Of a DNA stretch of 64,000 nt, positions 15,282 through 55,066 are shown one piece after another. The position numbers and the translations under genes were made by a program. The notes beneath the pieces are model-generated. The model had not been told where the DNA came from, made no database searches, and worked only from the letters and a program-made list of their open reading frames with translations. The DNA is from a virus. Its lineage: Duplodnaviria; Heunggongvirae; Uroviricota; Caudoviricetes. The stretch covers positions 159,865 through 223,864 of IMG/VR virus record IMGVR_UViG_3300033463_000007; one strand, written 5' to 3'. The first letter of the stretch is position 1; each line of letters opens with the position of its first letter.

Positions 15282-15797
15282 ATGGAAATTTTATATTGTA
15301 AATATTGCGGTAAAGAATGTAAAAATAAAAATAGTTTAGCTCAGCATGAACTTAGATGCTCTTACAATCCAAATAGGCTAAAATATTCTACCTGGAATAA
15401 AGGAAAAACAAAAGAAGTTGATGCACGATTAGTTAGAAAAGTTACAGATGGTTTTAGTAAAGTTGGATGGCGTCATTATCAACAGTATCTTGCAGATAAT
15501 TCTATTGCTTGGGGGCAACAGAATATGCAGTGTTATAAAAAATATTTTTTAGAGGAACAACATCATTGTTGTGCTATTTGTGGCTGCTCCGATTTATGGC
15601 AAGATAAGCTATTAGTGTTTATTCTTGATCATATAGATGGTAATGCTGATAATAATAATCGTGAAAATTTACGTCTAATATGTCCTAACTGTGATTCTCA
15701 GTTAGATACTTTTAAATCTAAGAATAAAAAATCTGCACGAGCAAAACATAGAAATATAAAAGTAGTAACTGAGGAACAATATAAAGAATTATTTTAA
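15282..15797 (+). CDS. HNH homing endonuclease (zinc-finger + HNH)
   Basis: CKYCGKEC zinc finger; HHCCAICG...LDHIDGNADNNNRENLRLICPNCDSQL HNH motif; no TGA. Confidence 0.65.
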   Translation: MEILYCKYCGKECKNKNSLAQHELRCSYNPNRLKYSTWNKGKTKEVDARLVRKVTDGFSKVGWRHYQQYLADNSIAWGQQNMQCYKKYFLEEQHHCCAICGCSDLWQDKLLVFILDHIDGNADNNNRENLRLICPNCDSQLDTFKSKNKKSARAKHRNIKVVTEEQYKELF

Positions 15798-17141: not shown

Positions 17142-18131
17142 ATGCAAAGAATGTTATCAGGAATAAAACCTACCGGAACTCCTACTTTAGGAACTTATTT
17201 AGGTGCAATTTTACCCTTTATAAGATACCAAAATGAATATGAGCTATTTATTTTTATTGCAGATTTACATGCCTTAACAACTTGTCAAAATGCTAAAGAA
17301 TTAAGAGATAATATTAATTTATTAGCTAAGATTTATCTAGCTGCTGGATTAGATTGTGGACAAAATAAAACTGTATTATTTAAGCAATCTGATGTATTAC
17401 AACATAGTCAGTTAAATTGGATTTTAAGTAATTATACACTAATGAGTGATCTTGAAATGATGACTCAATATAAACAAAAATGTCAGCAACTTGCAGCTAG
17501 ACAAGGAGTTAATGTATCTTTATTTACTTATCCTGTTTTAATGGCTGCAGATATTTTACTTTATAATACAGATTTAGTGCCTTGTGGTCAAGATCAAAAA
17601 CAACATATAGAATTAACACACGAGCTTGCCCGAAAATTTAACTCTATGTATGGTGAAACTTTTAAACTACCAAAGCCATATATAACCAAAACCGGCGCTA
17701 AAATAATGAGTTTATCTGACCCGACTAAAAAAATGAGTAAATCAGAGTCAGATAAAGGAACAATTTATTTAACTGATACTAAGGAAGTTATTTTTAATAA
17801 ATTTAAAAAAGCTGTCACTGATAGTGAAGGAAAAATTTATTATAATCCAGAAACTAAGCCTGGAATAAGCAATTTACTTACTATTTATGCTGCAATAAAA
17901 GATATTTCTATTCAAGAAGCTGAAAATATATTTAAAGATGAAAAAGATTACGGTAAATTTAAAAATGAAGTAGCTCAGATAGTTTGGCAATATTTAGATA
18001 CATTACAGTATAATATAAAACAAATTTCTGATAAACAAATATTTTTAACATTAGATGATGGTCAAAAACAGGCAGCTAAAATTGCATCAGAAACTCTATC
18101 CAAAGTATACAAAAAGGTGGGATTAAGATAA
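17142..18131 (+). CDS. trpS: Tryptophanyl-tRNA synthetase
   Basis: Class I aaRS: N-terminal MLSGIKPTGTPTLGTYLGAI, KMSKS motif KKMSKSESDKG; 329 aa; no TGA codons. Confidence 0.85.
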   Translation: MQRMLSGIKPTGTPTLGTYLGAILPFIRYQNEYELFIFIADLHALTTCQNAKELRDNINLLAKIYLAAGLDCGQNKTVLFKQSDVLQHSQLNWILSNYTLMSDLEMMTQYKQKCQQLAARQGVNVSLFTYPVLMAADILLYNTDLVPCGQDQKQHIELTHELARKFNSMYGETFKLPKPYITKTGAKIMSLSDPTKKMSKSESDKGTIYLTDTKEVIFNKFKKAVTDSEGKIYYNPETKPGISNLLTIYAAIKDISIQEAENIFKDEKDYGKFKNEVAQIVWQYLDTLQYNIKQISDKQIFLTLDDGQKQAAKIASETLSKVYKKVGLR

Positions 18132-18134
18132 AAT

Positions 18135-19196
18135 ATGTTTGATAGGCTTGAAAGTATATTAAATAAATATGATGAGCTTTCAATGAAATTAAGTTCTTCA
18201 GAAATTATTTCAAGTAATTTATATCAGCAATATAGTAAAGAGTTAGCAGATATTCAAGAAATTGTTGATACTTATTCTGCTTATAAAGACGCACAGGATT
18301 ATTTAGAACTACTTAAAGAAGATGAAGCTAAAAATACTGATTTGGAATTAAAAGTACTATATAATAGTGAAATTAAAGAAACTCAAAGTAAATTATCAGA
18401 GCTAGAAAATAATTTAAAATTATTATTATTGCCAGCTAACAAGGATGATTCCAAAAATATTATTATGGAAATTCGTGCAGGAGTTGGCGGAGATGAAGCA
18501 GCTATTTTTGCAGCAGATCTTTTTAATATGTATTTAAAATATACACAAAAACAAGGTTGGAATGTTTCAGTTAGTAGCTATACTGAAGGTGTTCTAGGTG
18601 GTTTTAAGGAAATTATCTTAAGTATTTCTGGTAAAAACGTTTATCAAAAATTAAAATATGAAGGTGGAGTACATCGGGTACAACGAGTACCAGAAACTGA
18701 GGCTAGAGGCAGAATTCATACATCAACAGCAACAGTTGCAGTACTTCCAGAAAGAACAGAAACAGAAGTTATAATTGATCCAAAAGATATTACTATTGGT
18801 TTATTTCATTCCGGTGGGGCTGGTGGTCAAAATGTAAACAAAGTTGAAACAGGTGTACGTATAACACATATTCCTACCGGAATGGTAGTTGCTTGTCAAG
18901 AAGAGCGGTCACAGCTACAAAACAAAGAACGTGCTTTTGAAATATTGCGCGCAAAGTTATGGGATTATTATAATACTCAAAATATTAATTCTGAAATAAA
19001 CCAACGAAATAGTATGATTGGTACTGGTGATAGATCAGAAAAAATTCGAACTTATAATTTTCCGCAGCATCGTATAACCGACCATAGAATTAATTATACT
19101 ACTTATAATATAGAAGAAGTATTACAAGGTAATTTAGATGATTTAATTGAACATTTACAAATTGCAGAAAATGCAAAATTGTTAATTAATCAATAA
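18135..19196 (+). CDS. prfA: Peptide chain release factor 1
   Basis: GGQ motif (SGGAGGQNVNKVETGVRITHIPTG), PxT-type tripeptide region RVPETEARGRIHTSTATVAVLPE, C-terminal HRINYT; 353 aa; no TGA codons. Confidence 0.85.
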   Translation: MFDRLESILNKYDELSMKLSSSEIISSNLYQQYSKELADIQEIVDTYSAYKDAQDYLELLKEDEAKNTDLELKVLYNSEIKETQSKLSELENNLKLLLLPANKDDSKNIIMEIRAGVGGDEAAIFAADLFNMYLKYTQKQGWNVSVSSYTEGVLGGFKEIILSISGKNVYQKLKYEGGVHRVQRVPETEARGRIHTSTATVAVLPERTETEVIIDPKDITIGLFHSGGAGGQNVNKVETGVRITHIPTGMVVACQEERSQLQNKERAFEILRAKLWDYYNTQNINSEINQRNSMIGTGDRSEKIRTYNFPQHRITDHRINYTTYNIEEVLQGNLDDLIEHLQIAENAKLLINQ

Positions 19197-19232: not shown

Positions 19233-19269
19233 TTTGCTAAATTATATAGTAAATATGGAGGATTTTATT

Positions 19270-20127
19270 ATGTTAAAATTTAAAGTACCAAAGCAACAAG
19301 ATTTAGATTTAGATCAGTTGATTTTTGATAGAATTACTTTTGGCAATACACAACCATCACCAAAAGATGATCGAGATTATATTGCGCAAGCTAAAGATTG
19401 ATCTAAAATAAAATTTCCAAAAGAATATAGAGCACCAAAAACAGAAGTTTTAAATCAAGAAAATTATGGGTCTTGCGTAGCTCATTCTTGCGCCACCGCT
19501 TTAGCCCAAGGAGAACAACTTATTTCAAATACCCACAATAATTATTCTCGCGGTTATATTTATGGTAATAGAAAATCAACTGACTTGCAAACTGAGGGTA
19601 TGATTGTTAGGCAGGCATTAAAGCAACTACATAATTGTGGAGATGTTCTATATGATGATTTTCCATATAATAAAACTTATCCTATGGTAAAAGCTTTAAT
19701 TGATATTGATAGAGAATATTTAGCAAATAAAGCAAAGCAGTATACTATTTTTGATTTTTATAGGTGTTGTGATGAAAATCAGTTAAAAGATGCTATTATA
19801 TCCTCCGGTGCAGTTATAATTGTAGTTCCTGTTTATAGTGATTTTGCCCGTGATTTACATAAAACTCAATCATGGGAACTCCGAGGCTATCATGCAATGG
19901 CTTTAGTTGGTTGAACTGCTGATAAATGAATTGTACAGAATTCTTGAGGCTTAGAATGGGGTTATGATGGTTGTTTATTAATGGATATGGATTATCCCAT
20001 AATTGAAAGCTGAGGCATAACCGTTAATAAGGAACTTAAAAAGTCACTTTGATATAGAATAAAAACAATTTTTAAACAATTTTGAAATTGAATTAAATAT
20101 ATCTGAAATAAAATATTTAAAAAATAA
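19270..20127 (+). CDS. Papain-like (C1) cysteine peptidase, paralog of 135..1187
   Basis: NYGSCVAHSCATALAQ Cys motif, GYHAMALVG-W-TADK-W-IVQNS-W-GLE-W-GYDG with W=TGA; ORF continuous only under TGA=Trp. Confidence 0.6.
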
Positions 20128-20216
20128 TTTGCTAAATTAATTAGTAATGCAGTAACTGTAAAAAATCTATTATTAGCTGCATTAGTTTAATAATTAGAGG
20201 AGAGATTTAGAAATAA

Positions 20217-20663
20217 ATGGATACTTGATTAGTAACTATAATTTCATTAATCGGGAGCACTGCATTATCAACAATAGTTGGCTTAATTATAAAAAACAGC
20301 GTCTCTAAAAAAATGGATGAACAAAAAGAATTACTTGAACTTCGTGAATCTAAAGGGCATCAAGAGCGTAAGCAAGAAATGACAGAAATTATAAAAGCTG
20401 AGTTATTACCCGTTACACAGCAGCTTGATTCATTATCAGAAGCAATAAAAAAGAATAATGCCGGTACTGTTACATTATTAAGAGAGAGCTTAAAGCAATC
20501 CAGAGATCATTTAATGGAAAAAGGAGTTGCCACTGCCTCTGAAGTTGCAAGTTGACATGAACTATATAATACTTATGCAAAGCTAGGCGGAAATAATTTT
20601 AAAGATTATGTTGATGCTTGAAAAGATGATGTAGATGGGCTACCAAGAGAAAAAAGTAAATAA
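20217..20663 (+). CDS. N-terminal transmembrane protein with charged coiled C-terminus (holin-like / lysis accessory)
   Basis: MDT-W-LVTIISLIGSTALSTIVGLII TM segment; three TGA=W; preceded by TTTGCTAAATTAATTAG motif. Confidence 0.35.
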
Positions 20664-20692
20664 AATTTTTAAATATGGTAAAGGAGTAATGT

Positions 20693-21073
20693 ATGGAAAA
20701 ATTTAGTTTAATTTGTGATTTAGTTATTGCTATTATTGGGGTAATTCCAACAATTATTTCATTAATTTATTTAGTTAGAAATATTATAAAAAATAAAAAT
20801 TGGAATATGATCATGAAAATGGCAATGGAAGCAATGACTGCTGTAGAAGCTTATGCTATTGCTAATCCTAACATGACATCTGAGGATAAACTTAATATGG
20901 CATTAGAGGCTATCAAGAAAGCCTGTGGATCTGCTGGAATTACAGTAGATGATATTCTTATTAAACAAATTATTGATTATATTTCTGAAATGTGCAGCTG
21001 GGCAAAAACTGTTAATACAAATGTAGAAGTAGTTGAAGTTAAAACTGTTATGCTTGCAGCAAAAACAAAGTAA
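20693..21073 (+). CDS. Holin-like protein (LL-H type architecture)
   Basis: N-terminal TM LICDLVIAIIGVIPTIISLIYLV followed by amphipathic helices. Confidence 0.4.
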   Translation: MEKFSLICDLVIAIIGVIPTIISLIYLVRNIIKNKNWNMIMKMAMEAMTAVEAYAIANPNMTSEDKLNMALEAIKKACGSAGITVDDILIKQIIDYISEMCSWAKTVNTNVEVVEVKTVMLAAKTK

Positions 21074-21095
21074 TTTAACAGGAGGATTTATTTAA

Positions 21096-21461
21096 GTGTT
21101 TTATATTGCAGATAATGGAATTATTAAGCTGCATGCTGGTGATTCTGGAAATTTTCATTTTCAAATCAATATTGGTTCCACAATAAATCCTCAACCTTAT
21201 GCATTACAAGCAAATGATAAAATTTATTTTTCAGTAATGGAACCAAACCAGCCTTTTGAGCTTGGTGTTTTAAGAAAAATTTTAACAGTTGATGATTTAA
21301 TTGATGAAACAACAATTAATATTCAATTTATAACAGAAGACACTGAAAGGTTAATTCCTGGAATTTATTATTATGAAATGAAATTAGTGCTTATAGATAA
21401 TGAAGAAAATACTCATTATTACACTATTTGCCCAAAAACTAAATTTTATATTCTTGATTAA
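21096..21461 (+). CDS. Hypothetical protein
   Basis: ORF with RBS AGGAGGA. Confidence 0.3.
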   Translation: MFYIADNGIIKLHAGDSGNFHFQINIGSTINPQPYALQANDKIYFSVMEPNQPFELGVLRKILTVDDLIDETTINIQFITEDTERLIPGIYYYEMKLVLIDNEENTHYYTICPKTKFYILD

Positions 21462-21529
21462 AAATAGTTTATTTAAAAATTAATAGCCCTCTCCACTTTA
21501 GGGGGCTTTTTTATTCGGAGAGATACTTT

Positions 21530-23023
21530 ATGAAGAAGACAGATAATTATCAACAAAATATAGATGAAAATAGTGATAAAAATTTTGAATCAATTGGGTA
21601 TGATGAACCAATTGATTTATTATATAGTGAATTAGTTGCCTCTAAGGAAACACCAGAACAAGTAATTATTTATACTGATTTTACACGTAGAACAGAATTA
21701 CCTACTGAAAATGATAAATATGTTAAATCATATATTCGTGAAGCTGATGGCGGATGAAATTTAGCTATTAAAGGTAAGCCTACTCATGAATTATGCACTG
21801 TATTAAGTAATTGTGTAGGCTGAGCCGCTGGTAGATATAATGAAATTTATGATGAAATTAAAAATATCACAGGTCATCATTATCCTTATTTAGTTTGTAA
21901 TGCAGAGGATTTTCCAGTTCGAGCCAAAAAATCATATCCTGATATTATAATGGATCAAACTCCTGAACCTGGCGCAATAATGGTCTGAGAAGGTATTGGT
22001 AGTCTCGCAGGACATGTTGCTATTGTAGAAGAAGTGATAGATAATAATACTGTATATACTTCTGAATCAGGTTATGGTAGTACTATTCCAATGAGATACC
22101 AAAAAAGAGTTAATGATAATGGTTGTTGAGGCATGAACACAACAAATTATAAATTTACTTGCTTTATGCACAATCCAGCAGTTGAAAAAACTATTATTAA
22201 TATAGTGCAACCAGTTGAAAGAGATGTACTAATAGATCAATTATATATTGATACACCTAATTATTCATATATTAGAATGGATCATAGTACAGCTTCTAAA
22301 GCCATAGGGCAGTTTAAACAGGGATATTTTAATTATACCGATAGTTTTATTGGCGATGATTATGTTTGATATAAGCTTGCTGAAAATCAATGAGTTGCTA
22401 AAACAGGCCATATCCAAGTATATCCTAAAGTAAATCCAAGTATAGAAAAAATTGAATTGAATGAAGACTATACTAATACATATTATGCAGGTGATTTTTT
22501 ACAGTTTAAAATGATAGGTTTAAATTGCAAAGAATATTGAAATACCGGGGAAGTAAAAGATGTTGTTTATAATAATTATAAAATAATACCAGCAAATGGC
22601 ACAGCTTTAACTGTTAATGATACAAAAATTATTATTAATTTTGAAAATAATTTAACTCTTGAATTACCTCTTGAGATAAAAGTTAAGGTTGAGCCAAAAG
22701 TTGTAAAAATACAGCTTTCTGGCACGTATAAAACTGAATATTGAGAAGGCGAAAAACTTGATTTAACTGGTCTTATTGTTGAAGCAGTTTATGATAATGG
22801 TGAAATTACTTCATCTATACCTTATATTGCTTCACCACAGGCAAATAGTTTGTTACCATTTATGGGGACTCAAAACGTTGTAATTGCTGCTTATCTTGAC
22901 AACAAAGGATTTTCAACTTCTTTTAAAATAAATGTAAAACATAAACAAACTGCAGCCGAAAAATTCAGTCAAATGATACAAGCACTAGCTAACTTTATTA
23001 GAAGTTTATTTAATAAAAAGTAA
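21530..23023 (+). CDS. CHAP-domain peptidoglycan hydrolase with C-terminal Ig-like repeats (lysin / tail-associated lysin)
   Basis: CTVLSNCVG-W-AAGRY (Cys) and GAIMV-W-EGIGSLAGHVAIVEEV (His) CHAP motifs; many TGA=W; C-terminal KVVKIQLSGTYKTEY-W-EGEKLDLTGLIVEAVYDNG Big-like domain. Confidence 0.6.
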
Positions 23024-35322: not shown

Positions 35323-37539
35323 ATGCGCACTCTCTTACTTTTAAGAGGTGCTCCTTAGCCAGGAGCAGGTAAGTCAACTTGGATACAGCAACACAATTTA
35401 CATGATTATACTATTTGTCCTGATGAGTTACGAGTTCTTTGTGCCTCAAAAGAGCTTATGGCTAACGGTGAGTATACAATTACTCAAGAAAGAAATAATG
35501 AAAATAAAGTATGGTCTTTATTATTTGATATTCTTGAATATAGAATGTCAAGAGGTGAATTTACTGTTATAGATGCTACTTGTTCTAAAACAAGAGATAT
35601 TCAACAGTATAAGGATCTTGCAGATCATTATAGATATAGAGTATATATTGTAGATTTTACAAAAGTGCCTCTTGAAACTTGTTTAGCACAAAATAAGCAG
35701 CGTCATCCCGATAAGTGGGTTCCGGATGATGCAATTAAAAATATTTATGCTAGATTTGCTACCCAGCCTATTCCTAAAGGTGTGTCTGTAATTCAGCCTG
35801 ATGAATTTGATACAATTTTAGAAACTCCTTTTGATGTATCTAACTATAGAAAATTAGTATTCATTGGAGATATTCATGGTTGTTATGATACTTTAATGCA
35901 GTATCCTGATTTCAAAGATGGATTAAAAGATGATACAGAATATATTTTTATTGGAGACTATATTGATAGGGGCAATCAAAATTATGAAGTCTTAAAGTTT
36001 CTTGGCGAAATAAAAGACCTTCCTAATGTTTGCTTACTTGTAGGAAATCATGAAAATCATATTCAAGATTTTGGAGACGGTATTACTGCAAAATCTAGGG
36101 AGTTTGAAGAAAAAACTAAAGTAGAGCTTCAGACAAAGGGATATACAGAAAAAGAAGCTAGAATGTTTTATAGAAAACTTAGACAGTTTTCTCACATCAC
36201 TTGGAATAGTTTTGAAATTCTAGCTTGTCACGGGGGAATTCCTAATCTTACAAAAAATCTACTCTATGTACCTTCTGAAAAACTTATTAAAGGATCAGGG
36301 TCTTATAGTGATTATTTAACGGTTACTGCTTCTTGGATGGCCCAGACAAATAGTAATCAATATTTAATTCATGGTCATAGAAATACTGAAGGTAGTGAAA
36401 CACAGATTGCTGATCGAGTTTTTAATCTTGAAGGCAAAGTAGAATTTGGTGGGCAGCTAAGAATTGTTGAATTAGATAAAGATGGTTTTCATACTATTGA
36501 GCTTGATGATTGTCAGCCAATTACTGAAGATCTTAATACCGAAACTCGACCGGTAGAGACAGTTGAAGACGCCATTTCTTATCTTAGAAATAATAAGTTT
36601 ATTCAAGAAAAGAAATTAAATGAACAAATATCTTCATTTAATTTTACCCGTGATGCTTTTTATAAAGGAAATTGGAATAGACAAACAATTCTAGCTCGTG
36701 GATTATTTATTGATACTGAAGCTAAAAAGATTATGGCTAGATCATACGAAAAATTCTTTAAAATTGGTGAAGTAAATTCTACTGAATTAGCTGTTTTAAA
36801 AAGTAAATTACAGTTTCCTGTAAGTGCATATGTTAAAGAAAACGGTTTTTTAGCTATTGTATCTTATGATTATAGAAATGATGATTTATTCATTGCATCT
36901 AAATCGACTAATCAAGGAGACTATGTTGAATATATCAAGACTGCTATCGAACCGTATAAAATAAATTTATTTAATTATTTAAAATATGCTAATGAAAATG
37001 GCAATAATATCTCTATGGTATTTGAATGTGAAGATCCTGAGCATGACCCACACATTATTAAATATAATAAGCTTAGAGTAGTTTTATTAGATATAATTTC
37101 TAACCAACTTGATTTTTTTGCTTGGCCTTATGAGCTAACTAAAAAAGTTGCAGAAGAAGTAATTTATTGTCCTGTAAAAGAAAAAGCATATGAATTTAAA
37201 GATTGGGACTCTTTTAGGGAATTTTATTCTGAAATCCAAGAAGATGATTATCAGTATAATGGAAAATATGTAGAAGGATTTGTATTTGTAGATTCTAACG
37301 GATTTCAAACAAAGTGTAAGACTCCTTATTATAATCAATGGAAAAAACTTAGAGGTGTTGCAGACCAGACTCTAAGACAGGGTTATATAGTAAAAACAGG
37401 AATGTTAATTAATTCTTTAGAAAATCTTTTTTATGGTTTTTGTAAAGATTTATATAAAACTTATAGAGATCCTGAAACAAAAACTTATCCATTTAAAACT
37501 GATATTATATCTTTAAGAGAAAGGTTTTTAGTTAATTAA
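35323..37539 (+). CDS. Polynucleotide kinase-phosphatase-ligase (Pnkp-like RNA repair enzyme) with in-frame TAG at codon 12 (35356-35358)
   Basis: P-loop LLRGAP-TAG-PGAGKSTW; metallophosphoesterase GDIHG...GDYIDRG...GNHE; C-terminal nucleotidyltransferase/ligase VKENGFLAIVSY (KxNG motif I); ORF 35458..37539 is the same frame. Confidence 0.5.
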
Positions 37540-45493: not shown

Positions 45494-45791
45494 GTTTTTT
45501 AATTTAATATTTGGTTAATTTTAAAATATTGCAACTAAAATATTTTGATAGGTGATTATAAAAAAATAATTTTAATTAGGCCTAATAATTATCATTTATA
45601 CTCATTGAAGTTTTCTGAAAAGATCAGTGAAGTTGCTACCTCTCGATATATAGGTGAAAGAAATCGGACCGCTATAAGGTGGGGTGCGGTTTAGACCCCT
45701 AAAGACAGCCGTCATTGAATGGTGATCACCCTATTCCATTCATTTTTTTATCTACTGCTGGTGTGGCTCAATGGCAGAGCAGCTGATTTGT

Positions 45792-46369
45792 AAAATAAAT
45801 TGCAACCTTGTAAGGAAACTTATAAGTGAAAATCTCGCTAATTCGGGGAAACCTACAATGAGTAGAATCTATCTTAATTGTGGTAGAAAAATTACCGGAC
45901 GAGGGCTTAAGTATTGTAACAATGTTTGCCAGAAAGAATATGAATATAAATCATATATTGAAAGATGGAAACAAGGTTTAGAAACTGGGCTTCGTGGGGA
46001 GTATCAAATATCTGATTTTATTAAAAGATATTTGTTTGAAACTCGTGGTAAGAAATGTGAACTGTGTGGTTGGGATAAAGTAAATCCTTTAACAAAAAAT
46101 GTTCCTGTAGAAATCCATCATATAGATGGAGATTACAAGAATAATTCAGAAGAAAATTTACAAATTTTATGTCCAAACTGCCATTCACTTACAAATACCT
46201 ACAAAAACTCTAATACTAATAATGGTAGAAAAGAGAGAAATAAATACTCGTCATGACAATCCCGAGCTAGGTTAATACCGAGTGTAGAGACTTTACACGA
46301 GAAACCTAAACCTATATAGGCATGGTTAAGAGAAAGTCCAGACTACAATGTGAAAACGATGTAGCACTG
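45792..46369 (+). ncRNA. Group I intron (td-like, subgroup IA) in tRNA-Thr anticodon loop
   Basis: P element CTAATTCGGGGAAACC (45836-45851), Q element GACAATCCCGAGCTA (46262-46276, near-identical to T4 td intron GACAATCCCGTGCTA), R element GTCCAGACTACAATG (46336-46350). Confidence 0.55.
45858..46256 (+). CDS. Intron-encoded HNH homing endonuclease
   Basis: MSRIYLNCGRK zinc finger; CELCG...VEIHHIDGDYKNNSEENLQILCPNCHSL HNH motif; ORF track extension to 45771 overlaps the tRNA 5' exon and is probably not translated. Confidence 0.6.
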   Translation: MSRIYLNCGRKITGRGLKYCNNVCQKEYEYKSYIERWKQGLETGLRGEYQISDFIKRYLFETRGKKCELCGWDKVNPLTKNVPVEIHHIDGDYKNNSEENLQILCPNCHSLTNTYKNSNTNNGRKERNKYSS

Positions 46370-46422
46370 AATCAGCAGGTTGATGGTTCGACTCCGTTCA
46401 CCAGCTCCAATAAATTATAAGA

Positions 46423-47020: not shown

Positions 47021-47080
47021 GCCCAGGTAACTCAGCTGGTTAGAGGAAATTGTGTCGTGGGTTCAAGTCCCACCCTGGGT
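47021..47080 (+). pseudogene. tRNA remnant lacking the anticodon stem-loop (acceptor + D-arm fused to T-arm + acceptor)
   Basis: GCCCAGG-TA-ACTCAGCTGGTTAGAGG ... GTGGG-TTCAAGT-CCCAC-CCTGGGT: only 10 nt where ~22 nt of anticodon arm plus variable loop should be. Confidence 0.35.
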
Positions 47081-47285
47081 TTTTTATAAAAGTTACAGTA
47101 AAATTATTAGCTAAATTAAAAGAATAAAATAGCTAAGATAGAAAAAATAGCACAACCAAAGAAATTTGGTGTCGCAAAGCTAAAGGGCCCTTTCCGGGCA
47201 GCCAGTTGCTTCTAGGAGACATTACTCATGGAAGCTTTTATTTTATTTATATTTTATTAAAAATTTATATAAAGGGGAAAAATTT

Positions 47286-47927
47286 ATGAAATTAAGAAAC
47301 ACATTAGCACTTATTATGGTAGCAGCTATGCTTTGCTTTGTTGGTGTTGGCTTTGCAGCATGAACATTTATGAATATTGAAGATGCTGAAGTTAGTACAA
47401 TTCAGGATAAAGTTGCTGTCGGTATTGAATTAAATAATGGTTTTAAACTCTATAATGCAGCAGATGATGCTGAAATTACCGCACTTTATCTTATTTGTGA
47501 TGCTCCTGCTGGTGAAACAGATATTCTTAATGGCCAGGGTGTTTATTGGTCAACTTCTGCAACAGGTAAAGATGGTTCTGGTAATAAGTTAGCTGTTACT
47601 AATGTATATATTAAAGGTACATTAGCAAAAGCTGATGAAGACGGTGTCTGGGATAAAGCTACTGTTGATGTTGCATTTACAGCCGACTATACTGATTTAA
47701 GTTCAACTTATATTACTTTTGGTGTAGCTCCAACTATTGCTAATACTACTGGTATTACTGTTGCAAATAATGCAGTAGTTCAAAGTGCATCTTTTGTATT
47801 ACCTTCAGTTGCATATGTTGCAGCAAATCTTCCTCACAGTATTTCAGAGTTAACAGATATGAATACTGCCCTTGGAACAGACTTAAGCGGTACTGCTTTA
47901 AGATTTACAGCTCAAATTGTTGCTTAA
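47286..47927 (+). CDS. Secreted protein with signal peptide
   Basis: MKLRNTLALIMVAAMLCFVGVGFAA-W signal peptide; TGA=W joins to ORF 47370..47927. Confidence 0.4.
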
Positions 47928-47942
47928 TTTAAGGGGTGTTTT

Positions 47943-48710
47943 ATGAATTCAATTACGATTATTACAATAGTCGTAGTTGCACTCTTAACCGTAGTTATCT
48001 TTGGGTTAGCCTGGTTAGGCTGGAGTTCTTGCCTAAAATTTTATAGAATTGAAATAAATTTAGGTAAGCATGATACTGAAATACTTAAAGAATATTGTTC
48101 TAAGAAGAAAAATAAAGGGGGACTGATTGGACTTATTAGTTCATACTTAGTCCTCCTTATCCTATTAGGACTATTTATAACCGGGATAGTTTATAAAATT
48201 AACGGTGAAAATTTTATTATCAACAATAAGACTGCCCTTGTAATCAAATCTGATTCAATGTCTGAATTTTTTGATGATGAAATAGCTAAACAATATCAAT
48301 TGTTAGATTATGATTCAGCATTACAATTTAGTATGGGAGATATTTGTATTTTTGAAAGGGTAACTGATAATACAAAATTAGTTAAGGGTGAAGTCTATGG
48401 CTATAAATATAAAAATATTATTATTACACATAGATTAGTAGATGAACCTATGAATGAAATTTATAGGTTTAGAGGCGATAATAATCCAGTTGCAGATCAA
48501 GTACTTATAAAAAAAGAAAATATTATTTATCATTATACCGGATATAAGATTCCAGGCTTTGGTGTTTTTATTTTATATGCTCAGTCATATTTTGGTATTT
48601 GGTCCTTGGTTAGTATCATTGGTGTAGCTATTAGTGCAGAAATTGTTTATCATAAATTAGATAATATAAATAAAAAGCATTATAGATATCTTGTAGAAAA
48701 TCGAGGCTAA
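47943..48710 (+). CDS. Signal peptidase I (S26)-like membrane protein
   Basis: N-terminal TM; KSDSMSE (SM catalytic Ser region) and RGDNNPVADQ (GDN box). Confidence 0.4.
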   Translation: MNSITIITIVVVALLTVVIFGLAWLGWSSCLKFYRIEINLGKHDTEILKEYCSKKKNKGGLIGLISSYLVLLILLGLFITGIVYKINGENFIINNKTALVIKSDSMSEFFDDEIAKQYQLLDYDSALQFSMGDICIFERVTDNTKLVKGEVYGYKYKNIIITHRLVDEPMNEIYRFRGDNNPVADQVLIKKENIIYHYTGYKIPGFGVFILYAQSYFGIWSLVSIIGVAISAEIVYHKLDNINKKHYRYLVENRG

Positions 48711-48714
48711 ATAT

Positions 48715-49695
48715 ATGAAAAATAAATTTTTAATTTGTATAATTAGTCTATTTACTATAGCTGCTTTATTTGGAACAACTTATTCTGCTTGATTATTCAC
48801 TGATGTCGCTATCGCCTCAAATCAATTTCAGGTTGAGGTACTTTCTTGAGTTTTTGGTGATAATGGTTTTGCTAAAATTGAAAATGTTCGAAATGGTACC
48901 AATGTAATTATTACAAAAGAAGAAAATATTACACAAAATAGTTCTGAAGCTATTAGAATGACTAGCACTACTGGAACATCTACAAAAGATCATATAATAA
49001 ATATTAATTTTGATCGTGATTATTATCTTTCAGAAATTCAGTTTTATAAATTTGAATTTGATTATTATCATAGATATAAAAGAGAACAGTATGATAAAGG
49101 GTTTCCTAAGATACAATTTACTATAAACAATTCAACTTTAGGAAGTGATCAGGGTGGAACTGACTATTGTACTGAAACCTCCGCCTTTGTAGTAACAGAA
49201 ATTGATGAAAATTGGTGACATTTAGAATATTATGTATTTGCTAATATGCCAACAATTGCTCGACATAGTGATACTCCAATTGCTTTAACTAAAAAAGTAA
49301 ATGGCGTTAGAATTACAGATCGAACTATGTATGATTATGCTGGTACTACAGCTTTTGTTATTATTGATAATATGCAATTTAGTGCGGAGCCCACCTCCAG
49401 ATTGGGCATATTTAACAGATGGACCGGAGATACTGCTGGAAATTATTTTTGGGTTAAAGTTGCATTTTCTGGGCAGCCACATTCAGTTAAGCTTTATTCA
49501 AGTGATACAAGCATAGCTGTTCCTGAATTTGATCCTAGCGATATAGTATCTACTTCATATCCGTTTCCTAATGGAAGTCCATTTTATGTACAATTTTTAA
49601 AAGCTGGTACAGTGACTATCACAGCTGTTTTGGAACTTGGTGATAATCATGAAATACAAACTATTAGTTATACTTATATAGTTACAGATCCTTAA
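48715..49695 (+). CDS. Secreted protein (signal peptide; ORFs 48958..49218 and 49246..49695 joined via TGA=Trp)
   Basis: MKNKFLICIISLFTIAALFGTTYSA-W signal; frame continuous through 4 TGA. Confidence 0.4.
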
Positions 49696-49736
49696 AAAAA
49701 TCTGCTCCTTGTGAGCAGATTTTTTATTTTTTATTG
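49696..49736 (+). terminator. Rho-independent terminator followed by TTATTGTATAATATA promoter
   Basis: AAAAAAATCTGCTCCTTGTGAGCAGATTTTTTATTTTTT. Confidence 0.6.
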
Positions 49737-49775
49737 TATAATATATTGCACATAAAAAAATGTGCAATATTATAT

Positions 49776-50181
49776 GGGGGTGTAAAGGTTTCGACAGGGT
49801 TAAGAAAGTGATAGTATACGCAGGAGTTATTCACCTTACGAATCGGTAATTTAAAATAAACGACAATACAATTGTTACTTTTAGTCCTTTCTTAATTAAT
49901 GCACTCTCTTCTATGAGGGCTGCTGCTTAAGATATTATAGGCGCCAAAACAATACGCTGGTGATCAAGCAAGTATTTGAGGTCAAAGAACGGGTCACATA
50001 AAGTTGTCCAACTTTAAAATGGACTGGTGGAGACGGATAAAACCGGCGCAACTCATTTAATATATTGAATTTGCTTATTTTACATTATATTAAATTATTT
50101 TATTAAATAAGCTAGTGCGTAAGTATTATACTATTTTAGTATTAATTTTGGACAGGGGTTCGATTCCCCTCACTTCCACCA
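49776..50181 (+). ncRNA. ssrA: tmRNA (ssrA) with long tag ending -AAA
   Basis: 5' GGGGGTGTAAAGGTTTCGACAGGG (cf. E. coli GGGGCUGAUUCUGGAUUCGACGGG), 3' GGACAGGGGTTCGATTCCCCTCACTTCCACCA; acceptor with G3:U70; tag ORF ...GAC AAT ACA ATT GTT ACT TTT AGT CCT TTC TTA ATT AAT GCA CTC TCT TCT ATG AGG GCT GCT GCT TAA = (N)DNTIVTFSPFLINALSSMRAAA. Confidence 0.75.
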
Positions 50182-50185
50182 ATGT

Positions 50186-50261
50186 CTGGGTGTAATTCAG
50201 TTGGTAGAATGCGTGATTTGGGATCACGATGCCGGATGTTCAAGTCATCTCACTCAGACCA
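50186..50261 (+). tRNA. tRNA-Pro(UGG)
   Basis: CTGGGTG-TA-ATTC-AGTTGGTA-GAAT-G-CGTGA-TTTGGGA-TCACG-ATGCC-GGATG-TTCAAGT-CATCT-CACTCAG-A-CCA. Confidence 0.7.
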
Positions 50262-50271
50262 TAGGCTCATT

Positions 50272-50347
50272 GGAGCTCGTCCTCGACGATATTGAGGGCA
50301 CGCCTTATAAGCGTGTACATAAGGTTTGACTCCTTAGGGCTCTACCA
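50272..50347 (+). tRNA. tRNA-Ile(UAU)-like
   Basis: GGAGCTC-GT-CCTC-GACGATATT-GAGG-G-CACGC-CTTATAA-GCGTG-TACA-TAAGG-TTTGACT-CCTTA-GGGCTCT-A-CCA; D-loop lacks GG and pos 8 is G, so lower confidence. Confidence 0.4.
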
Positions 50348-50403
50348 GGAAAAAGTTAATAGCAATATTAACTTTTATTTTTTATAAAGGAAGGTTTTAT
50401 AGC

Positions 50404-51191
50404 ATGAATTTATTTAAATGCTACCTATCCGACAGTAAGTGATATAAAGAAGCCGTAAGAAATGGTCAACCCATTGGAATTCTTTGACATGACACTGCTG
50501 CTGGAAACCCAAACTTAAAACGTTATGTCCAACCAAATGAATCAGATCCAGATTATGATAAGCTTATGGCAATGCTTGGAAAGAATCAATATAATAATTC
50601 TTGACAGCATTCTACCATGAATAAAGGTGTAAATGCTTTTATTGGTAAACTAGAAGATGGCTCGGTTGCAACAGCTCAATTAGGTGAATGAGATATTCAT
50701 GCTTGAGGTTGTGGGGGCGGAAATAAAGGCTCCTGTAATGGTTATACTATTGTAAATGGTAAAACAACTTGAGTTGAACCTTTTTGGATTCAATTTGAAA
50801 CTTGCGACGACTTTTATACTGATAAAAGCTACTTTGAAGCGGTCTATAAAGAAGCTTGTGAGTTTACAGCTTATATTTGTAAGCAATTTAATATTGATCC
50901 AAATGGTACCGTAGAGTTTAATGGTGTTCAGGTACCTACTATTTTATGTCATGCAGATAGCTATAAGCTTGGACTTGGAAATGATCATGGTGACGTTTTA
51001 GTATGATTTAAAAAGTTTGGTAAAACTATGGATGATGTAAGAAGAGATGTGGCTGCTATCTTACAAGAAGAAAAAGAAAAAGATGATAAAGATAAAGACG
51101 ATGAAGAAATAGATGAAAATACATTTCTCAAATGCTTTAAAATAGTCATCAAATTTATTAAACAGCTCTGGTATAGCACAAATAAAAAGTA
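50404..51191 (+). CDS. N-acetylmuramoyl-L-alanine amidase (Amidase_2/PGRP-like endolysin); 9 in-frame TGA=Trp
   Basis: GIL-W-HDTAAGNP, HA-W-GCGGGNKGSCNGY, PTILCHADS zinc-ligand pattern; completely fragmented in the standard-code ORF track. Confidence 0.65.
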
Positions 51192-51198
51192 AAACTTT

Positions 51199-51240
51199 AA
51201 AAGACCCCAGAATTCTGAGGTCTTTTTATTGTATAATATA
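51199..51240 (+). promoter_or_regulatory. Terminator-promoter cassette upstream of polA
   Basis: AAAGACCCCAGAATTCTGAGGTCTTT hairpin then TTATTGTATAATATA. Confidence 0.5.
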
Positions 51241-51267
51241 AAGAATAAATTTATAGTAGAGGTTGTT

Positions 51268-53037
51268 ATGTCTAGTTTATTTGGTGATGAATTTGAAATT
51301 AAAATTAAAGAACCAGTAGTTAAAGATTTAATTAATAAAACAAAAGCTAAGAAAGAAGCAGAGATTGATCCTGAAAAGCTTTTAAAATCAAAGAAGACCT
51401 CTTTACTCGATAGATTAGCTCTTATTAATGAAAATGTATCTAAAATTTTGGGTAAGCAAAAACATAATGTTTTAGTAATTAAAGATAAACAAACATTTGA
51501 AAATTATATTACTGAAGCCATTAAATCCGGTCGAATCGCAATAGATACAGAAACTAATAATTCAACAGACCCCGTAACTTGTAAATTAATGGGTCCTTGT
51601 TTCTATTATCCTGGTGGTAAACAGGCTTATGTACCTATTAATCATAGAAATCCGGAAACAAAAGAACGGCTTTCATGGCAATTAACAGAACAGGACTGTC
51701 AGGAGCAGTTTAAAAGACTTGTTGATAGCCATAATGAAATTATAATGCATAATGGCAAATTTGACTATGAAGTTATTAAATGTACATGTGGAATCGAAGT
51801 TGTTCCAGATTGGGATACTCTAATTGCTGCAAGATTAATAGATGAAAATACATTTAAAGATGCTGCTATTGGCCTTAAATCACTATATACTAAATATATT
51901 GATCCGGAGCAAGAAAAATACTCAATAGATCATTTATTTGCAAATGTTACATATGCTGATGTAGATCCAGATATTTTTGCTTTATATGCTGCCACAGACT
52001 CAATGATGACTGATAAAGTATATATTTGGGAGCATAAAACTTTTTATGATTTACCAGAAAATCAACCTGTATTAAATTTGCTTAGAACTATTGAAATGCC
52101 GATTATTCAGGTTACAGCTGAAATAGAATTACGCGGTGTTTTTATTGATCAGGAGCTTGGTGAAAGACTTAAGATAAAATATAATAATCAACTTAATGAA
52201 TTAGATAATAAAATTAATCAAATTCTAGTAGATATAAAACCGATTATTTCAACTTGGCGGCTTACAAAAGATGCAGTAGATCAAGCTAAACAATATGTTT
52301 CCGCAAAATCTAAAATGACAGCTGAAAAAATTGAAACAACATATCCTTTTATTGATAAGGATGGCAGACGTTATAAAATTGGTAAATCAAAGTCAGAACA
52401 GCTACCTGAAGATGTAAATCTTGCATCTCCTACACAACTTGCTATTTTATTGTATGATATTTTAGGTTGCCCAGTAATTGATAAAAAGAATCCAAGGGCT
52501 ACAGGTGAAGAAGAAATTGGTAAAATTGTTGAGAAATTAGAGTCAAAGGAGACAAATGATATTAAAGTAGCCGCGGCTAAACAGCTTTGTAGTAGCATTT
52601 TGCAGCGTAGAGGCTTAGCTAAGTTAATTACTACTTATATTGATGTTATTCCTGACTTGGCAAAGCATTGGCCAGACGGTAGAATTAGATATAGATTAAA
52701 TTCAACCGGCACAGACACAGGTCGTTTTGCCTCTGGTGGCAAGTTTAAATTCCTAGATGAAAATGAAAACCCAGTAGAATTAAACTCAATTAATAGCCAA
52801 AATTTACCTTCTCATAATGCAGAAATTAGACTTTTATTTAAAGCCAGTGAAATTTATAATAAATGTTATTGTAATGATGATGTTTATAAGATTCAAGTCG
52901 GTGATGAAGTTGAAACTATTGATGGCTGGAAAAATGTTAAAGAATTAAAAGTTGGTGATGTTATTATTGGTGATGAAAGTCAGGATACTATTATTAATAT
53001 AGTTCAAAAAGAGCAAACTTATTTAATTTATATTTAA
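51268..53037 (+). CDS. polA: DNA polymerase I (family A), 3'-5' exo + N-terminal part of polymerase domain (exon 1 to ~52857; remaining 60 codons are in-frame read-through into the insertion)
   Basis: IAIDTETN (Exo I), HNGKFDYEV (Exo II), RIRYRLNSTGTDTGRFASGG and NLPSHNAEIRLLFKASEIY align to Klenow RIHTSFNQTGTATGRLSS and NLQNIP...IRQAFIAPEDY. Confidence 0.7.
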   Translation: MSSLFGDEFEIKIKEPVVKDLINKTKAKKEAEIDPEKLLKSKKTSLLDRLALINENVSKILGKQKHNVLVIKDKQTFENYITEAIKSGRIAIDTETNNSTDPVTCKLMGPCFYYPGGKQAYVPINHRNPETKERLSWQLTEQDCQEQFKRLVDSHNEIIMHNGKFDYEVIKCTCGIEVVPDWDTLIAARLIDENTFKDAAIGLKSLYTKYIDPEQEKYSIDHLFANVTYADVDPDIFALYAATDSMMTDKVYIWEHKTFYDLPENQPVLNLLRTIEMPIIQVTAEIELRGVFIDQELGERLKIKYNNQLNELDNKINQILVDIKPIISTWRLTKDAVDQAKQYVSAKSKMTAEKIETTYPFIDKDGRRYKIGKSKSEQLPEDVNLASPTQLAILLYDILGCPVIDKKNPRATGEEEIGKIVEKLESKETNDIKVAAAKQLCSSILQRRGLAKLITTYIDVIPDLAKHWPDGRIRYRLNSTGTDTGRFASGGKFKFLDENENPVELNSINSQNLPSHNAEIRLLFKASEIYNKCYCNDDVYKIQVGDEVETIDGWKNVKELKVGDVIIGDESQDTIINIVQKEQTYLIYI

Positions 53038-53101
53038 TTTTTTATCTTGACCGGTAAAATCAGTGCTAAATTAATTAGATTAATATTTTGGAGGTTTAAT
53101 T

Positions 53102-53896
53102 ATGGCATATGGTTTTATTTATAAAATAATAACTACAGCTTCTAATAAAGTTTATATTGGACAAACAACTAGAACTATTGAAGAACGTTACCAAGAGCAT
53201 TTGAAAGCAAGAAATAGTAAAGATAAAAATACTTTACATTTATATCTTGCTATGAATAGGTATGGCGTTGATACTTTTAGTGTTGAAAAAATTGATGAAG
53301 CTAATACACAAGAAGAACTAAATCAAAAAGAAATATATTGAATTAATTTTTATGATTCAATGAATAATGGATATAATATGGCACCTGGTGGTAGCATAAA
53401 TATTTTTGAATCTGAAAAAGTTAGAAAAAAACATGCAGCAAGCATGCGTGATCCAAAAACACGAGAAAAAATTTCTAAAACAATGCATGAGCTTAGAACT
53501 ACTTTTGGCTTTTCTGAGGAACATAAAAAAAAGATACGTGAATCAAGTCGAAAGCGAAAAGAAGAACGGGCAAAGTTAGGTTTAAAATATTATGATGATT
53601 GTTCACATTGTGCAACTAGATCAAAAGCAGTTTATTGTATATTAGATACCGGTGAAAAATTTGAATTTGATTCTATTTTACACGCTGGTAAATGATGATA
53701 TGAAACATACAAACCCTTTGGTGAAACTTATTCTACTGCTACCTATCAAAGAAAAATTGAAGCCTCTATTGCGGGTAAAGAAATTATTTTCCAATCCGGA
53801 CATGACAGTAGAAGTCAAGGTAAAAAAAATATTATTATTAAAATAACTAATATAAAATGATTTTATAAAGATAATTGAAATGGAGGTGATGCCTAA
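53102..53896 (+). CDS. GIY-YIG homing endonuclease inserted within polA (intron-encoded)
   Basis: GFIYKIITTASNKVYIGQTTRTIEERYQEHL GIY-YIG motif; ORFs 53102..53341 and 53360..53695 same frame joined by TGA; preceded by GTGCTAAATTAATTAG motif and RBS GGAGG. Confidence 0.7.
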
Positions 53897-55066
53897 TGAA
53901 AAAGTCTGTCAATATTCGCACAAAATATCGAATTGTTGGTTCAGACTATTCTTAAGTCCGGTCAGGAATTACGACTAGCTGCTTTTATTAGTCAAGATAA
54001 AAAATTACTTGATGCTTATGCAAATAATCAAGATGCTTATGCTATTATTGCAAGCACAATTTTTAATGTACCATATGAAGAATGCCTAGAATTTTATCCA
54101 GCTGGTACTGAGCTAGAAATTGGTGGCCAAAAGGTTATTGCCGGTAATAAAACTCATTTAAATCCAGATGGTAAGGCAAGAAGATCTGTTGGTAAAACAA
54201 TGGTGCTTGCTGGAAACTATGGAATGTCAGGTGCTGGTGCTGGTTCTCTTATGAAGAAAACAGCTAAAGAAGGCAAAGAACTCCTCGAAAAATATTTTCA
54301 GATGTTTACCGGACTTGGTAGTGCTATAGAAAAAGCAAAGGCAGATTTAAAAAAGACTGGTTACGTTGAAGGTCTTTGTGGGCGTAGACGTAGGCTGCCA
54401 GATATTTTTCTTTCTCCCTATGAAGTAAAATATAAAGATCCTGCTAAATTAGAGCAGCAGAATTTTAATCCATTTATAAATTGTCAAAATAGAAATTATA
54501 TTGATCCAACACTTCAGAAATATATTACAAAAACTAATTTTTGTAAAAATAATACTGACTATGAAGCTTTGGTACAGGAAGCTGCTAAAGATGGTGTAAT
54601 TGTACAGGCTAATACAGGTAGAATTGCGCAGGCAGAGAGACAGTGTTTTAATGCTTTAATTCAGGGCGCCGCTGGTACACTTACTAAAAAAGCTATGATT
54701 GATATTTTCAACGATGAACAATTAAGAGCTTGGGATACACATTTAATTGTTACAGTACATGATGAAGTATTAGTTGAATGTAAAGAAGAATATGCAGACT
54801 TGGTTGAGCAAAGATTACCGGAAATTATGATTAATGCAGCTAAAGAACTTGGCATTGAAGCGCCCAGTATGAAATGTGATCCGTATAATGTTACTAGATG
54901 GTATGCAGATAATGCAGCAGCAGCAATTTTAAAAGAATATAATAAAGCTGTTGAAAAAGGAAAGTCAAATGAAGAGGCTCTTGAAAAAGTTATTCAAGAG
55001 CATGAGGAAATTCCAGGAGAAGCCATTATTAAAACAGTTGAAACTGGTTGTGATTTAAATTTTTAA
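53897..55066 (+). CDS. polA: DNA polymerase I C-terminal part (motifs A, B, C); contains a 7-nt frame discontinuity inside motif A at 53947-53953
   Basis: Frame a: MKKSVNIRTKYRIVGSDYS-TAA (motif A Asp); frame b from 53954: GQELRLAAFISQD..., RRSVGKTMVLAGNYG (motif B), VHDEVLVE (motif C). Confidence 0.6.

Follow-up and report, generated by a model that had tools for sequence, protein, structure and literature searches.

What is a transfer-messenger RNA (tmRNA) doing in the genome of a phage that reads the UGA stop codon as tryptophan? The question is raised by a 64,000-nucleotide (nt) stretch of viral DNA, positions 159,865 to 223,864 of the IMG/VR record IMGVR_UViG_3300033463_000007 (the window), in which an original prediction, made from the bare sequence, had placed a phage-encoded tmRNA with a long proteolysis tag, followed by two tRNA genes and lying next to a stop-codon-recoding module. 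The window does carry a one-piece tmRNA gene (ssrA) at 49776-50181 on the plus strand, 406 nt long and with an encoded CCA end. We believe that it is probably an intact phage tmRNA that uses the SmpB, alanyl-tRNA synthetase (AlaRS) and EF-Tu of the host, and that it raises the capacity for ribosome rescue during infection.

The identity of the gene is clear. ARAGORN and the Rfam model RF00023 place it with identical ends, at the coordinates originally predicted. The RF00023 match spans the whole model (1-374 of 374) with 85.5 bits against a gathering threshold of 47 (E 9e-32), and the posterior probabilities of the alignment are near 1 across 50117-50181 and the tRNA-like domain, which the covariance model thus recognises within a full-length call. 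The RNA begins with GGGGGUG...GGUUUCGACAGGG, and the T arm AGGGG-UUCGAUU-CCCCU followed by CACUUCC-A-CCA forms its 3' end; these canonical ends and the G3.U70 pair, all claimed by the prediction, can be read directly in the sequence. The tRNA-like domain has a 7 bp acceptor (GGGGGUG/CACUUCC), a T loop of the GUUCGAnUC type and a 3' ACCA, and with G3.U70 and the discriminator A73 both alanine identity elements are there, from which charging with alanine is predicted. The internal elements, given below in window coordinates or in nt of the tmRNA, were placed by combining the RF00023 alignment, a minimum-free-energy fold, hand pairing and a script that enumerates H-type pseudoknots (PK).

nt 1-7/396-402 of the tmRNA: acceptor stem
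49776-49818, plus strand: 5' half of the tRNA-like domain, with the acceptor strand (nt 1-7), the D-loop analogue GGUUUCGAC and the 5' strand of helix 2 (nt 20-28 and 36-43)
nt 20-28/367-375 and 36-43/352-359: helix 2, from hand pairing and the Rfam alignment
49822-49851, plus strand: PK1, stems 47-49/59-61 (3 bp) and 50-56/70-76 (7 bp, three of them G.U), from the Rfam alignment and hand pairing
49862-49930, plus strand: tag reading frame (nt 87-152 and stop at 153-155), with the resume codon GAC at 49862-49864, 22 codons in all, and UAA at 49928-49930
49901-49943, plus strand: two hairpins at the 3' end of the frame, one within it (nt 126-133/140-148, 8 bp) and a helix-5 equivalent (nt 149-154/163-168) with the UAA, from the minimum-free-energy fold
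50055-50112, plus strand: PK4-type H-pseudoknot, AUUUAAUAUA/UAUAUUAAAU (nt 280-289/311-320) and GCUUAUUU/AAAUAAGC (nt 298-305/330-337)
50117-50181, plus strand: 3' strand of helix 2, T arm, acceptor strand CACUUCC, discriminator A and CCA (RF00023)

The tag frame is equally well defined. Resume codons begin with G almost always, and the context found here, UAAAC|GAC, has such a codon with U at -5 and A at -4. From it runs the tag DNTIVTFSPFLINALSSMRAAA, written in part as ...ADNTIVTFSPFLINALSSMRAAA, of 22 codons, or 23 residues counting the charging alanine. The frame contains no in-frame UGA, and its UAA stop lies within the hairpin 149-154/163-168. Read in either of the other two frames, the resume region yields short peptides that do not end in Ala-Ala, and the 22-codon frame is therefore the meaningful one. 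The predicted tag of about 22 residues ending in Ala-Ala-Ala stands in these respects, but the asparagine with which it had been made to start (AAC) precedes the resume codon and falls outside it. The tag is also long, as had been said, ranking 12th in length among 100 unique sampled tags. Calling it a proteolysis tag was an assumption: its C-terminus is RAAA and not LAA, and it is unusually hydrophobic, above 93 of 99 sampled tags.

Folding of PK1 to PK4, which had been proposed as a check on the prediction, gave an uneven picture. The PK4-type pseudoknot stands out, with a score of 38 against 27.8 +/- 3.0 for the best pseudoknot per shuffle in 100 mononucleotide shuffles, and its first stem is aligned to the PK4 hairpin of RF00023. 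The PK1 stems fit the layout of PK1 in the model but are AU/GU-rich and weak, and the pseudoknot script did not recover them; for PK2 and PK3 nothing better than chance was obtained. Overall, what the gene has in common with bacterial one-piece tmRNAs (RF00023) is G3.U70, A73, CCA, helix 2, a resume codon starting with G (preceded by the putative PK1), a short frame, a hairpin with the Ala-Ala-stop and, ahead of the 3' strand of helix 2, a pseudoknot. It differs from them in being phage-borne, in its 22-codon hydrophobic tag ending RAAA, in the hairpin inside the frame, in G4.U69, in the lack of a recognisable PK2 or PK3, and in an internal sequence unlike that of some 230 sampled tmRNAs.

Because the elements needed for trans-translation are intact, namely the Ala-identity domain, the resume context, the open frame and the stop in its hairpin, a working tmRNA is favoured, and the phage genes on both sides of it speak for the same reading. 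At the same time, a number of observations weigh against it. The acceptor also contains a G4.U69 wobble, on which the original prediction was silent, in the place of the usual G4-C69; the RF00023 score is the lowest among ten tmRNAs compared, the other nine, viral or metagenomic, scoring 92-144 bits; the first stem of PK1 is only 3 bp long; and the PK2 and PK3 candidates did not rise above shuffles in the pseudoknot script, in a region where the RF00023 alignment is poor. Searches of viral and metagenome contigs returned no diverged homologue of the tmRNA, hence no support from conservation or covariation. Five sampled relatives of the phage, with DNA polymerases (PolA) 55-82% identical, have no tmRNA at the equivalent locus, where their sole tRNA is a positional tRNA-Thr. 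No SmpB was found among the 58 of 68 window open reading frames (ORFs) covered by protein profile scans, the other ~170 kb of the genome lying outside the window, and with a hydrophobic tag that ends in AAA degradation by ClpXP is not assured. As for the pseudoknots, replacement of PK2-PK4 is tolerated in E. coli tmRNA, and their weakness here is therefore not disqualifying.

The pathway by which an intact tmRNA of this kind would act can be laid out in general terms. Consider a cell infected by this phage. The precursor would be cut by host RNase P and other tRNA-processing enzymes, and host AlaRS would charge the RNA with alanine by way of G3.U70, A73 and the encoded CCA. The charged tmRNA would then bind SmpB and EF-Tu, whether supplied by the host or by the ~170 kb of the genome beyond the window, and would enter ribosomes stalled without a usable A-site codon. 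Translation would resume at GAC, appending (A)DNTIVTFSPFLINALSSMRAAA, and would terminate at UAA, to be read by release factor 1 (RF1), which the phage supplies as well. The extra rescue would plausibly be most useful once a UGA-reading tRNA drives read-through of host UGA stops to the 3' ends of mRNAs.

The tmRNA is the first gene of a self-contained stable-RNA operon, which also holds tRNA-Pro(UGG) and a putative, diverged tRNA-Ile(UAU) and is bracketed by two terminators.

49695-49735, plus strand: intrinsic terminator of the upstream, riboswitch-led operon, a 13 bp stem with a T-run (terminator scan)
49737-49771, plus strand: putative promoter region, a perfect TATAAT (49737-49742) followed by a palindrome (read in the sequence)
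50186-50261, plus strand: tRNA-Pro(UGG), 4 nt past the tmRNA, CCA encoded (ARAGORN; Rfam, 60.5 bits)
50272-50347, plus strand: putative diverged tRNA-Ile(UAU), 7/4/5/5 cloverleaf with A73 and CCA (ARAGORN -ps90)
50351-50385, plus strand: probable terminator of the tmRNA-tRNA operon, an AU-rich 11 bp hairpin with a T-run (read in the sequence)
50404-51192, plus strand: endolysin/amidase gene directly downstream, with 7 TGA and 2 TGG codons (phrog_15001 endolysin, E 1e-26)

The terminator at 49695-49735 is predicted to isolate the operon from upstream transcription. The promoter scan did not list the TATAAT at 49737, which has no -35 match. Between it and G1 of the tmRNA, at 49743-49771 on the plus strand, lies a perfect 11-nt inverted repeat, ATATTGCACAT-A7-ATGTGCAATAT, which may act either as an operator or as a leader hairpin in processing. 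The terminator scan, which needs at least three G-C pairs, did not list the hairpin at 50351-50385. The tRNA-Pro that had been predicted to follow the tmRNA is found by both ARAGORN and Rfam. The claim of a tRNA-Ile(UAU) after it survives in part. Default ARAGORN, and Rfam RF00005 at E<=5, make no call at 50272-50347; at a 90% threshold (-ps90) ARAGORN calls Ile(tat) there, with a 7-nt anticodon loop, CUUAUAA. The D loop has no G18G19 and the T loop, UUUGACU, has U in place of C56, and both partners of the elbow contact are therefore lost. A 19-mer from the anticodon arm matched a single viral contig (156 kb, L296), which carries a canonical tRNA-Ile(UAU) in a five-tRNA array; this tRNA agrees with the element at 53 of 76 positions, and the two are identical throughout the anticodon arm, in the D stem and at nt 26. 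From its cloverleaf and this homology the element reads as a diverged tRNA-Ile(UAU), its function uncertain.

Where, then, do the relatives of this tmRNA lie? The exact 5' 24-mer of the gene had no match in viral contigs. A degenerate 5' motif found 120 loci there, 106 of them tmRNAs and none alike beyond the tRNA-like domain, and a 20-mer from the resume region gave two chance matches, neither with a tmRNA. The metagenome scan was dominated by bacterial tmRNAs, with neither a close homologue nor the source contig among the matches listed, and an internal motif common to the nearest tmRNAs gave, in genome contigs, 40 chance matches in unrelated taxa and no tmRNA. Among the ~230 tmRNAs gathered from viral and metagenome contigs, none is significantly similar outside the tRNA-like domain and helix 2. 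Global identity was marginally highest, at about 55%, for an AT-rich gut lineage (L007, L146, L162, L171 and L173) with both chromosomal-looking and tRNA-array-embedded tmRNA copies. The long tag has a Mollicutes-like look, but the standard code is in use in those contigs whose tmRNAs come closest. An integrase and an NAD-salvage island, uninformative as to taxon, are the neighbours of the nearest bacterial-type tmRNA (tag ANRQMLAVA). As in the window, the tmRNA lies inside a tRNA array at 18 of the 205 tmRNA-bearing loci surveyed. A recoding test of tmRNA-bearing viral loci, by ORF coverage under codes 11, 4 and 15, was too noisy in short loci and was dropped.

The tag ends of this survey, a small and biased sample of 128 one-piece tmRNAs chosen by 5' motifs, fall into an uneven pattern. 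Those within 300 nt of a tRNA end in -AAA in five of six cases, against one of 122 elsewhere (Fisher p 1.4e-7, or 1.5e-5 on unique tags); the window tmRNA makes this six of seven. The array-embedded one-piece loci (L070, L083, L146, L162 and L211, with the window) belong to several unrelated sequence lineages. Phage tmRNAs may have an -AAA end as their hallmark, which should be taken as a lead, not as a result. One of these loci, in a 49 kb viral contig with a tmRNA whose tag ends in -RAAA, also carries a HEARO RNA (L083, 848-1055, minus strand; RF02033, 134 bits).

The genome around the operon is that of a phage, as had been predicted: the window is part of a ~232 kb gut phage with stage-specific TGA-to-Trp recoding, not of a cell using code 4. 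It has a GC content of 29.6%, and its phage markers include tail-fibre-like genes, UvsX, endolysins, a holin, homing endonucleases and a PolA that a GIY-YIG endonuclease gene interrupts. This PolA recurs unchanged on a 232 kb contig, and its relatives (55-82% identity) lie on contigs of 190-273 kb, one of them an IMG/VR viral genome; four other assemblies hold fragments of the same phage that are 100% identical, samples with this phage are JGI 3300028832, SRR10393136, SRR8543131 and ERZ27256849, and exact look-ups of PolA and of a nucleotidase gene of the NT5C type gave nothing else. The cultured phages nearest by polymerase are those of Streptococcus, Clostridium and Bacillus. The polymerase relatives, a SipW-type peptidase and a c-di-GMP-I riboswitch suggest Bacillota as the host, which is probably a standard-code gut member of that phylum.

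Reading TGA as sense raises the long-ORF sequence of the window from 46 kb to 59 kb, and reading TAG as sense gives no rise. Use of TGA is bimodal: 14 genes have 67 TGA against 19 TGG codons (TGA making up 78% of their Trp codons), and 45 genes have none against 142 TGG. TAA ends 64 of the 68 genes, and TAG the other four. The TGA-rich genes encode two C1-type peptidases, two endolysins, homing endonucleases, PhoH and tail-fibre-like proteins; the TGA-free genes form a block for replication (gyrase, DnaB, primase and clamp-loader subunits among others) and nucleotide metabolism (with thymidylate synthase, DHFR, FolD, dUTPase and thymidine kinase). The phage tRNAs (Pro-UGG, Thr-UGU, Ile-UAU and Trp-UCA) all read A-ending codons, and in the genes of the window ATA makes up 27% of Ile codons, CCA 48% of Pro codons and ACA 43% of Thr codons.

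A recoding module is present, as the original prediction held, but it does not adjoin the tmRNA: it occupies 14.8-19.2 kb, which is some 30 kb further upstream.

14812-15175, plus strand: intron-split tRNA with an insert of ~288-289 nt, a probable group I intron (ARAGORN with introns allowed; clean cloverleaf)
15282-15797: HNH endonuclease gene, downstream of the split tRNA
17142-18131, plus strand: tryptophanyl-tRNA synthetase (TrpRS), TIGR00233 324 bits against a cut-off of 177, no in-frame TGA
18135-19196, plus strand: RF1, NF001859 472 bits against a cut-off of 400, no in-frame TGA
19234-23023: TGA-rich lysis cassette directly after RF1, with a peptidase, membrane proteins including a holin-like one, and an endolysin

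The product of 18135-19196 scores 261 with the RF2 model, below the cut-off of that model. The tRNA at 14812-15175 is missed entirely by default ARAGORN and by Rfam, because the intron splits it. The label that ARAGORN -i gives it, Ala(UGC), was rejected: it needs a C.A mismatch and two nt between the D and anticodon stems, and A3-U70 is not an alanine identity. With the intron moved by one base, the anticodon stem has five Watson-Crick pairs (GCGGU/ACCGC), the loop is CUU|intron|CAAA with the anticodon UCA, and the discriminator is G73, the bacterial tRNA-Trp identity; with this placement (intron at 14846-15134) the last base of the 5' exon is U and that of the intron is G, in line with group I splice-site rules. 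On this hand refolding the split tRNA most likely has a UCA anticodon, which would read UGA, and fits a Trp identity. The group I model RF00028 runs full-length over the insert below threshold, at 17.7 bits (E 0.044 for a 601-base stretch).

Such an arrangement has a precedent. A 'code change operon' upstream of the lysis cassette has been drawn for two TGA-recoded Jade phages, and just ~35% of the phages with TGA recoding were reported with a detectable suppressor tRNA (Borges et al., bioRxiv 10.1101/2021.08.26.457843). The window resembles the Jade operon in that TrpRS, RF1 and a UGA-reading tRNA, in standard code throughout, come immediately before a lysis cassette that contains TGA, a likeness of layout, the window having no terminase; it is also like the phages of Borges et al. 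in that the homing endonuclease gene is among the families that prefer TGA in Agate phages. It differs in that a probable group I intron interrupts the UGA-reading tRNA and that the genome carries a tmRNA, which Borges et al. do not mention. In the literature searched, which is incomplete, we found no tmRNA in a TGA-recoded phage, no link between a tmRNA and phage recoding, and no intron-split UGA-reading tRNA. Standard tRNA finders miss the key recoding tRNA of this phage, and suppressors split in this way may account for part of those 'missing' from recoded phages and may help to explain the ~35% figure.

Is the tmRNA, then, itself part of the change of code? Its coupling to read-through of UGA stops makes mechanistic sense, and one could imagine that it was recruited, and its tag reshaped, for the effects of UGA suppression, either clearing ribosomes that have run past host UGA stops or outcompeting the host tmRNA at slow in-frame UGA codons, which would spare late proteins the host degradation tag. 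The tRNA(UCA), TrpRS and RF1 are in the same genome, the operon is flanked by TGA-containing late-type genes, including the endolysin with its seven TGA codons, and the tag is atypical, its frame free of UGA and its stop a UAA read by RF1. There is an experimental precedent as well, tmRNA having been found to act at poorly decoded or unassigned stop codons and to limit virus propagation in a recoded host. Against these points, UAA stops are the norm for tmRNAs generally, and the operon stands 30 kb from the recoding module in another, accessory block, and the relatives have no tmRNA at this locus. None of the 205 other tmRNA-bearing loci has a suppressor tRNA, and the paper that defines TGA-recoded phages makes no mention of tmRNA. 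The catalogued phage tmRNAs include those of cluster C mycobacteriophages (Bxz1 and others) and of Bacillus phage G, whose tag has 13 residues, AKLNITNNELQVA, and others have been noted, along with SmpB and release factors, in metagenomic huge phages. The tmRNA of the window is like these in belonging to a large phage with tRNAs and other translation genes alongside; the mycobacteriophages and phage G are not reported to be stop-codon-recoded, and what the window genome adds to theirs is the set of tRNA(UCA), TrpRS and RF1. On balance we regard recruitment for the code change as unlikely, though not far-fetched.

A more ambitious form of the same idea would make the tmRNA an adaptive accessory to the conflict between codes, one that takes over rescue with its own non-host, hydrophobic -AAA tag, recycles ribosomes for late genes and leaves the fate of the tagged proteins under phage control. 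On this view, once the cell has been switched to UGA as Trp, ribosomes on host messages, and on any others ending in UGA, would pass their stops and accumulate at the ends of mRNAs or would pause at in-frame UGA codons. This we hold to be rather unlikely. In its widest version, phage-type tmRNAs embedded in tRNA arrays may form a functional class marked by -AAA ends.

The gene might also be a decaying or repurposed copy that no longer tags, whether a decoy that titrates SmpB and damps host trans-translation or a passenger in a mobile tRNA island. A tmRNA-like RNA of mycobacteriophage DS6A, consisting of the tRNA-like domain only, has been suggested to be such an SmpB-titrating decoy; the window RNA is likewise phage-borne and could compete for SmpB, but differs in that it spans the whole tmRNA and keeps both the tag frame and the resume context intact. 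The lowest Rfam score among the tmRNAs compared, the weak PK1, the unsupported PK2 and PK3, the G4.U69 wobble, the degenerate tRNA-Ile(UAU) alongside and the absence of the block from relatives would all be in keeping with decay. The parts needed for tagging speak against it, for the 22-codon frame still ends in Ala-Ala-Ala-stop, the resume context, the hairpin stop and the full tRNA-like domain are all in place, and the tolerance of E. coli tmRNA for replacement of PK2-PK4 takes weight from the weak folds. We consider loss of tagging improbable. That the gene is a cellular ssrA, of a code-4 organism or of host DNA flanking a prophage integrated at ssrA, is extremely improbable: ssrA is a common integration site, many 'viral' contigs of the survey have a host tmRNA at their ends (in L171, for example, followed by an integrase), and a code-4 bacterium would also have RF1, TrpRS, tRNA-Trp(UCA) and a tmRNA, but here same-strand phage genes lie on both sides, the bimodal use of TGA is not expected of a code-4 cell, the window is full of phage markers with no integrase among the 58 of 68 ORFs scanned, and contigs of similar size recur among the relatives.

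We are therefore left with an intact phage tmRNA, working in ribosome rescue during infection, as the favoured reading. A recoded phage has to handle a cell that for a short time runs on two genetic codes, and if this phage does bring its own rescue RNA for the code switch, trans-translation would join suppressor tRNA, TrpRS and RF1 in the toolkit of recoding and would offer a testable weak point. Even without such a link, the phages with a complete tmRNA, as yet a short list, gain a further member in a huge phage of the gut Bacillota type.

The tmRNA belongs to an accessory block and not to the conserved core of the genome. In the PolA relatives the primase is followed by a ~270-aa gene and then, within about 100-330 bp, by PolA; the same gap in the window measures ~5.7 kb and holds the tmRNA operon. 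The closest relative, whose polA is 80% identical at the nt level, has in this gap an uninterrupted tRNA-Thr(UGU) (L290, 1123-1198) and a 75-aa gene. Since the relatives lack a tmRNA at this locus, it is dispensable for the lineage and no fixed part of the core there. The block runs from a split tRNA-Thr through the NT5C gene, a 61 nt tRNA-like element and the riboswitch-led operon to the terminator, the tmRNA with its tRNAs, the AU-rich hairpin and the endolysin; the parts upstream of the tmRNA operon are the following.

45757-46409, plus strand: split tRNA-Thr(UGU), with a 578 nt intron that holds an HNH-type ORF and ends in G, after a 5' exon whose last base is U
After the split tRNA-Thr, within the ~5.7 kb block: NT5C-type nucleotidase gene
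47021-47081, plus strand: 61 nt tRNA-like element between the NT5C gene and the riboswitch (RF00005, 40 bits)
47139-49695, plus strand: c-di-GMP-I riboswitch (49.5 bits, gathering threshold 35) and the operon that it leads

The tRNA-Thr intron scores only 14 bits with the group I model. The uninterrupted tRNA-Thr of the closest relative was considered as the 'empty site' of this intron and dropped, the two tRNAs being different alleles. The 61 nt element has acceptor, D and T arms, with 2 nt in place of the 15 nt anticodon arm and no CCA, and its T arm and U-run were flagged as terminator-like; it could be a processing signal, a terminator or the remnant of a deletion. The riboswitch operon encodes two secreted proteins with signal peptides of the SipW/TasA type (47286-47927 and 48715-49695) and a SipW-like signal peptidase (47943-48710), which has no relatives in viral contigs; the arrangement suggests that the c-di-GMP level of the host controls a phage-encoded secreted or fibre-like product.

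Several other genes of the window deserve mention. The family A DNA polymerase downstream of the operon (51229-55066, plus strand) consists of two ORFs split by the GIY-YIG homing endonuclease gene (53102-53896, with five TGA codons), the N-terminal ORF ending in a short Hint-like tail; in relatives PolA occurs both in split versions (L123, L126) and in a fused one of 902 aa (L124). Just upstream of the recoding module, at 13384-14088 on the plus strand, a 235-aa protein is weakly like N-terminal-nucleophile peptidases of the proteasome beta/HslV type (PF00227, E 0.0015, below the cut-off; PDB 6z46_H, E 0.025), and to tie it to the fate of tagged proteins would be pure speculation. Finally, a single 693-aa chain encoded at 35458-37536 on the plus strand combines a P-loop kinase (AAA_33), a calcineurin-like phosphatase and an RNA ligase of the T4 Rnl1 type, by its domains the set of a tRNA/RNA repair system (Pnk and Rnl1), which would be another investment of this phage in sustaining translation.

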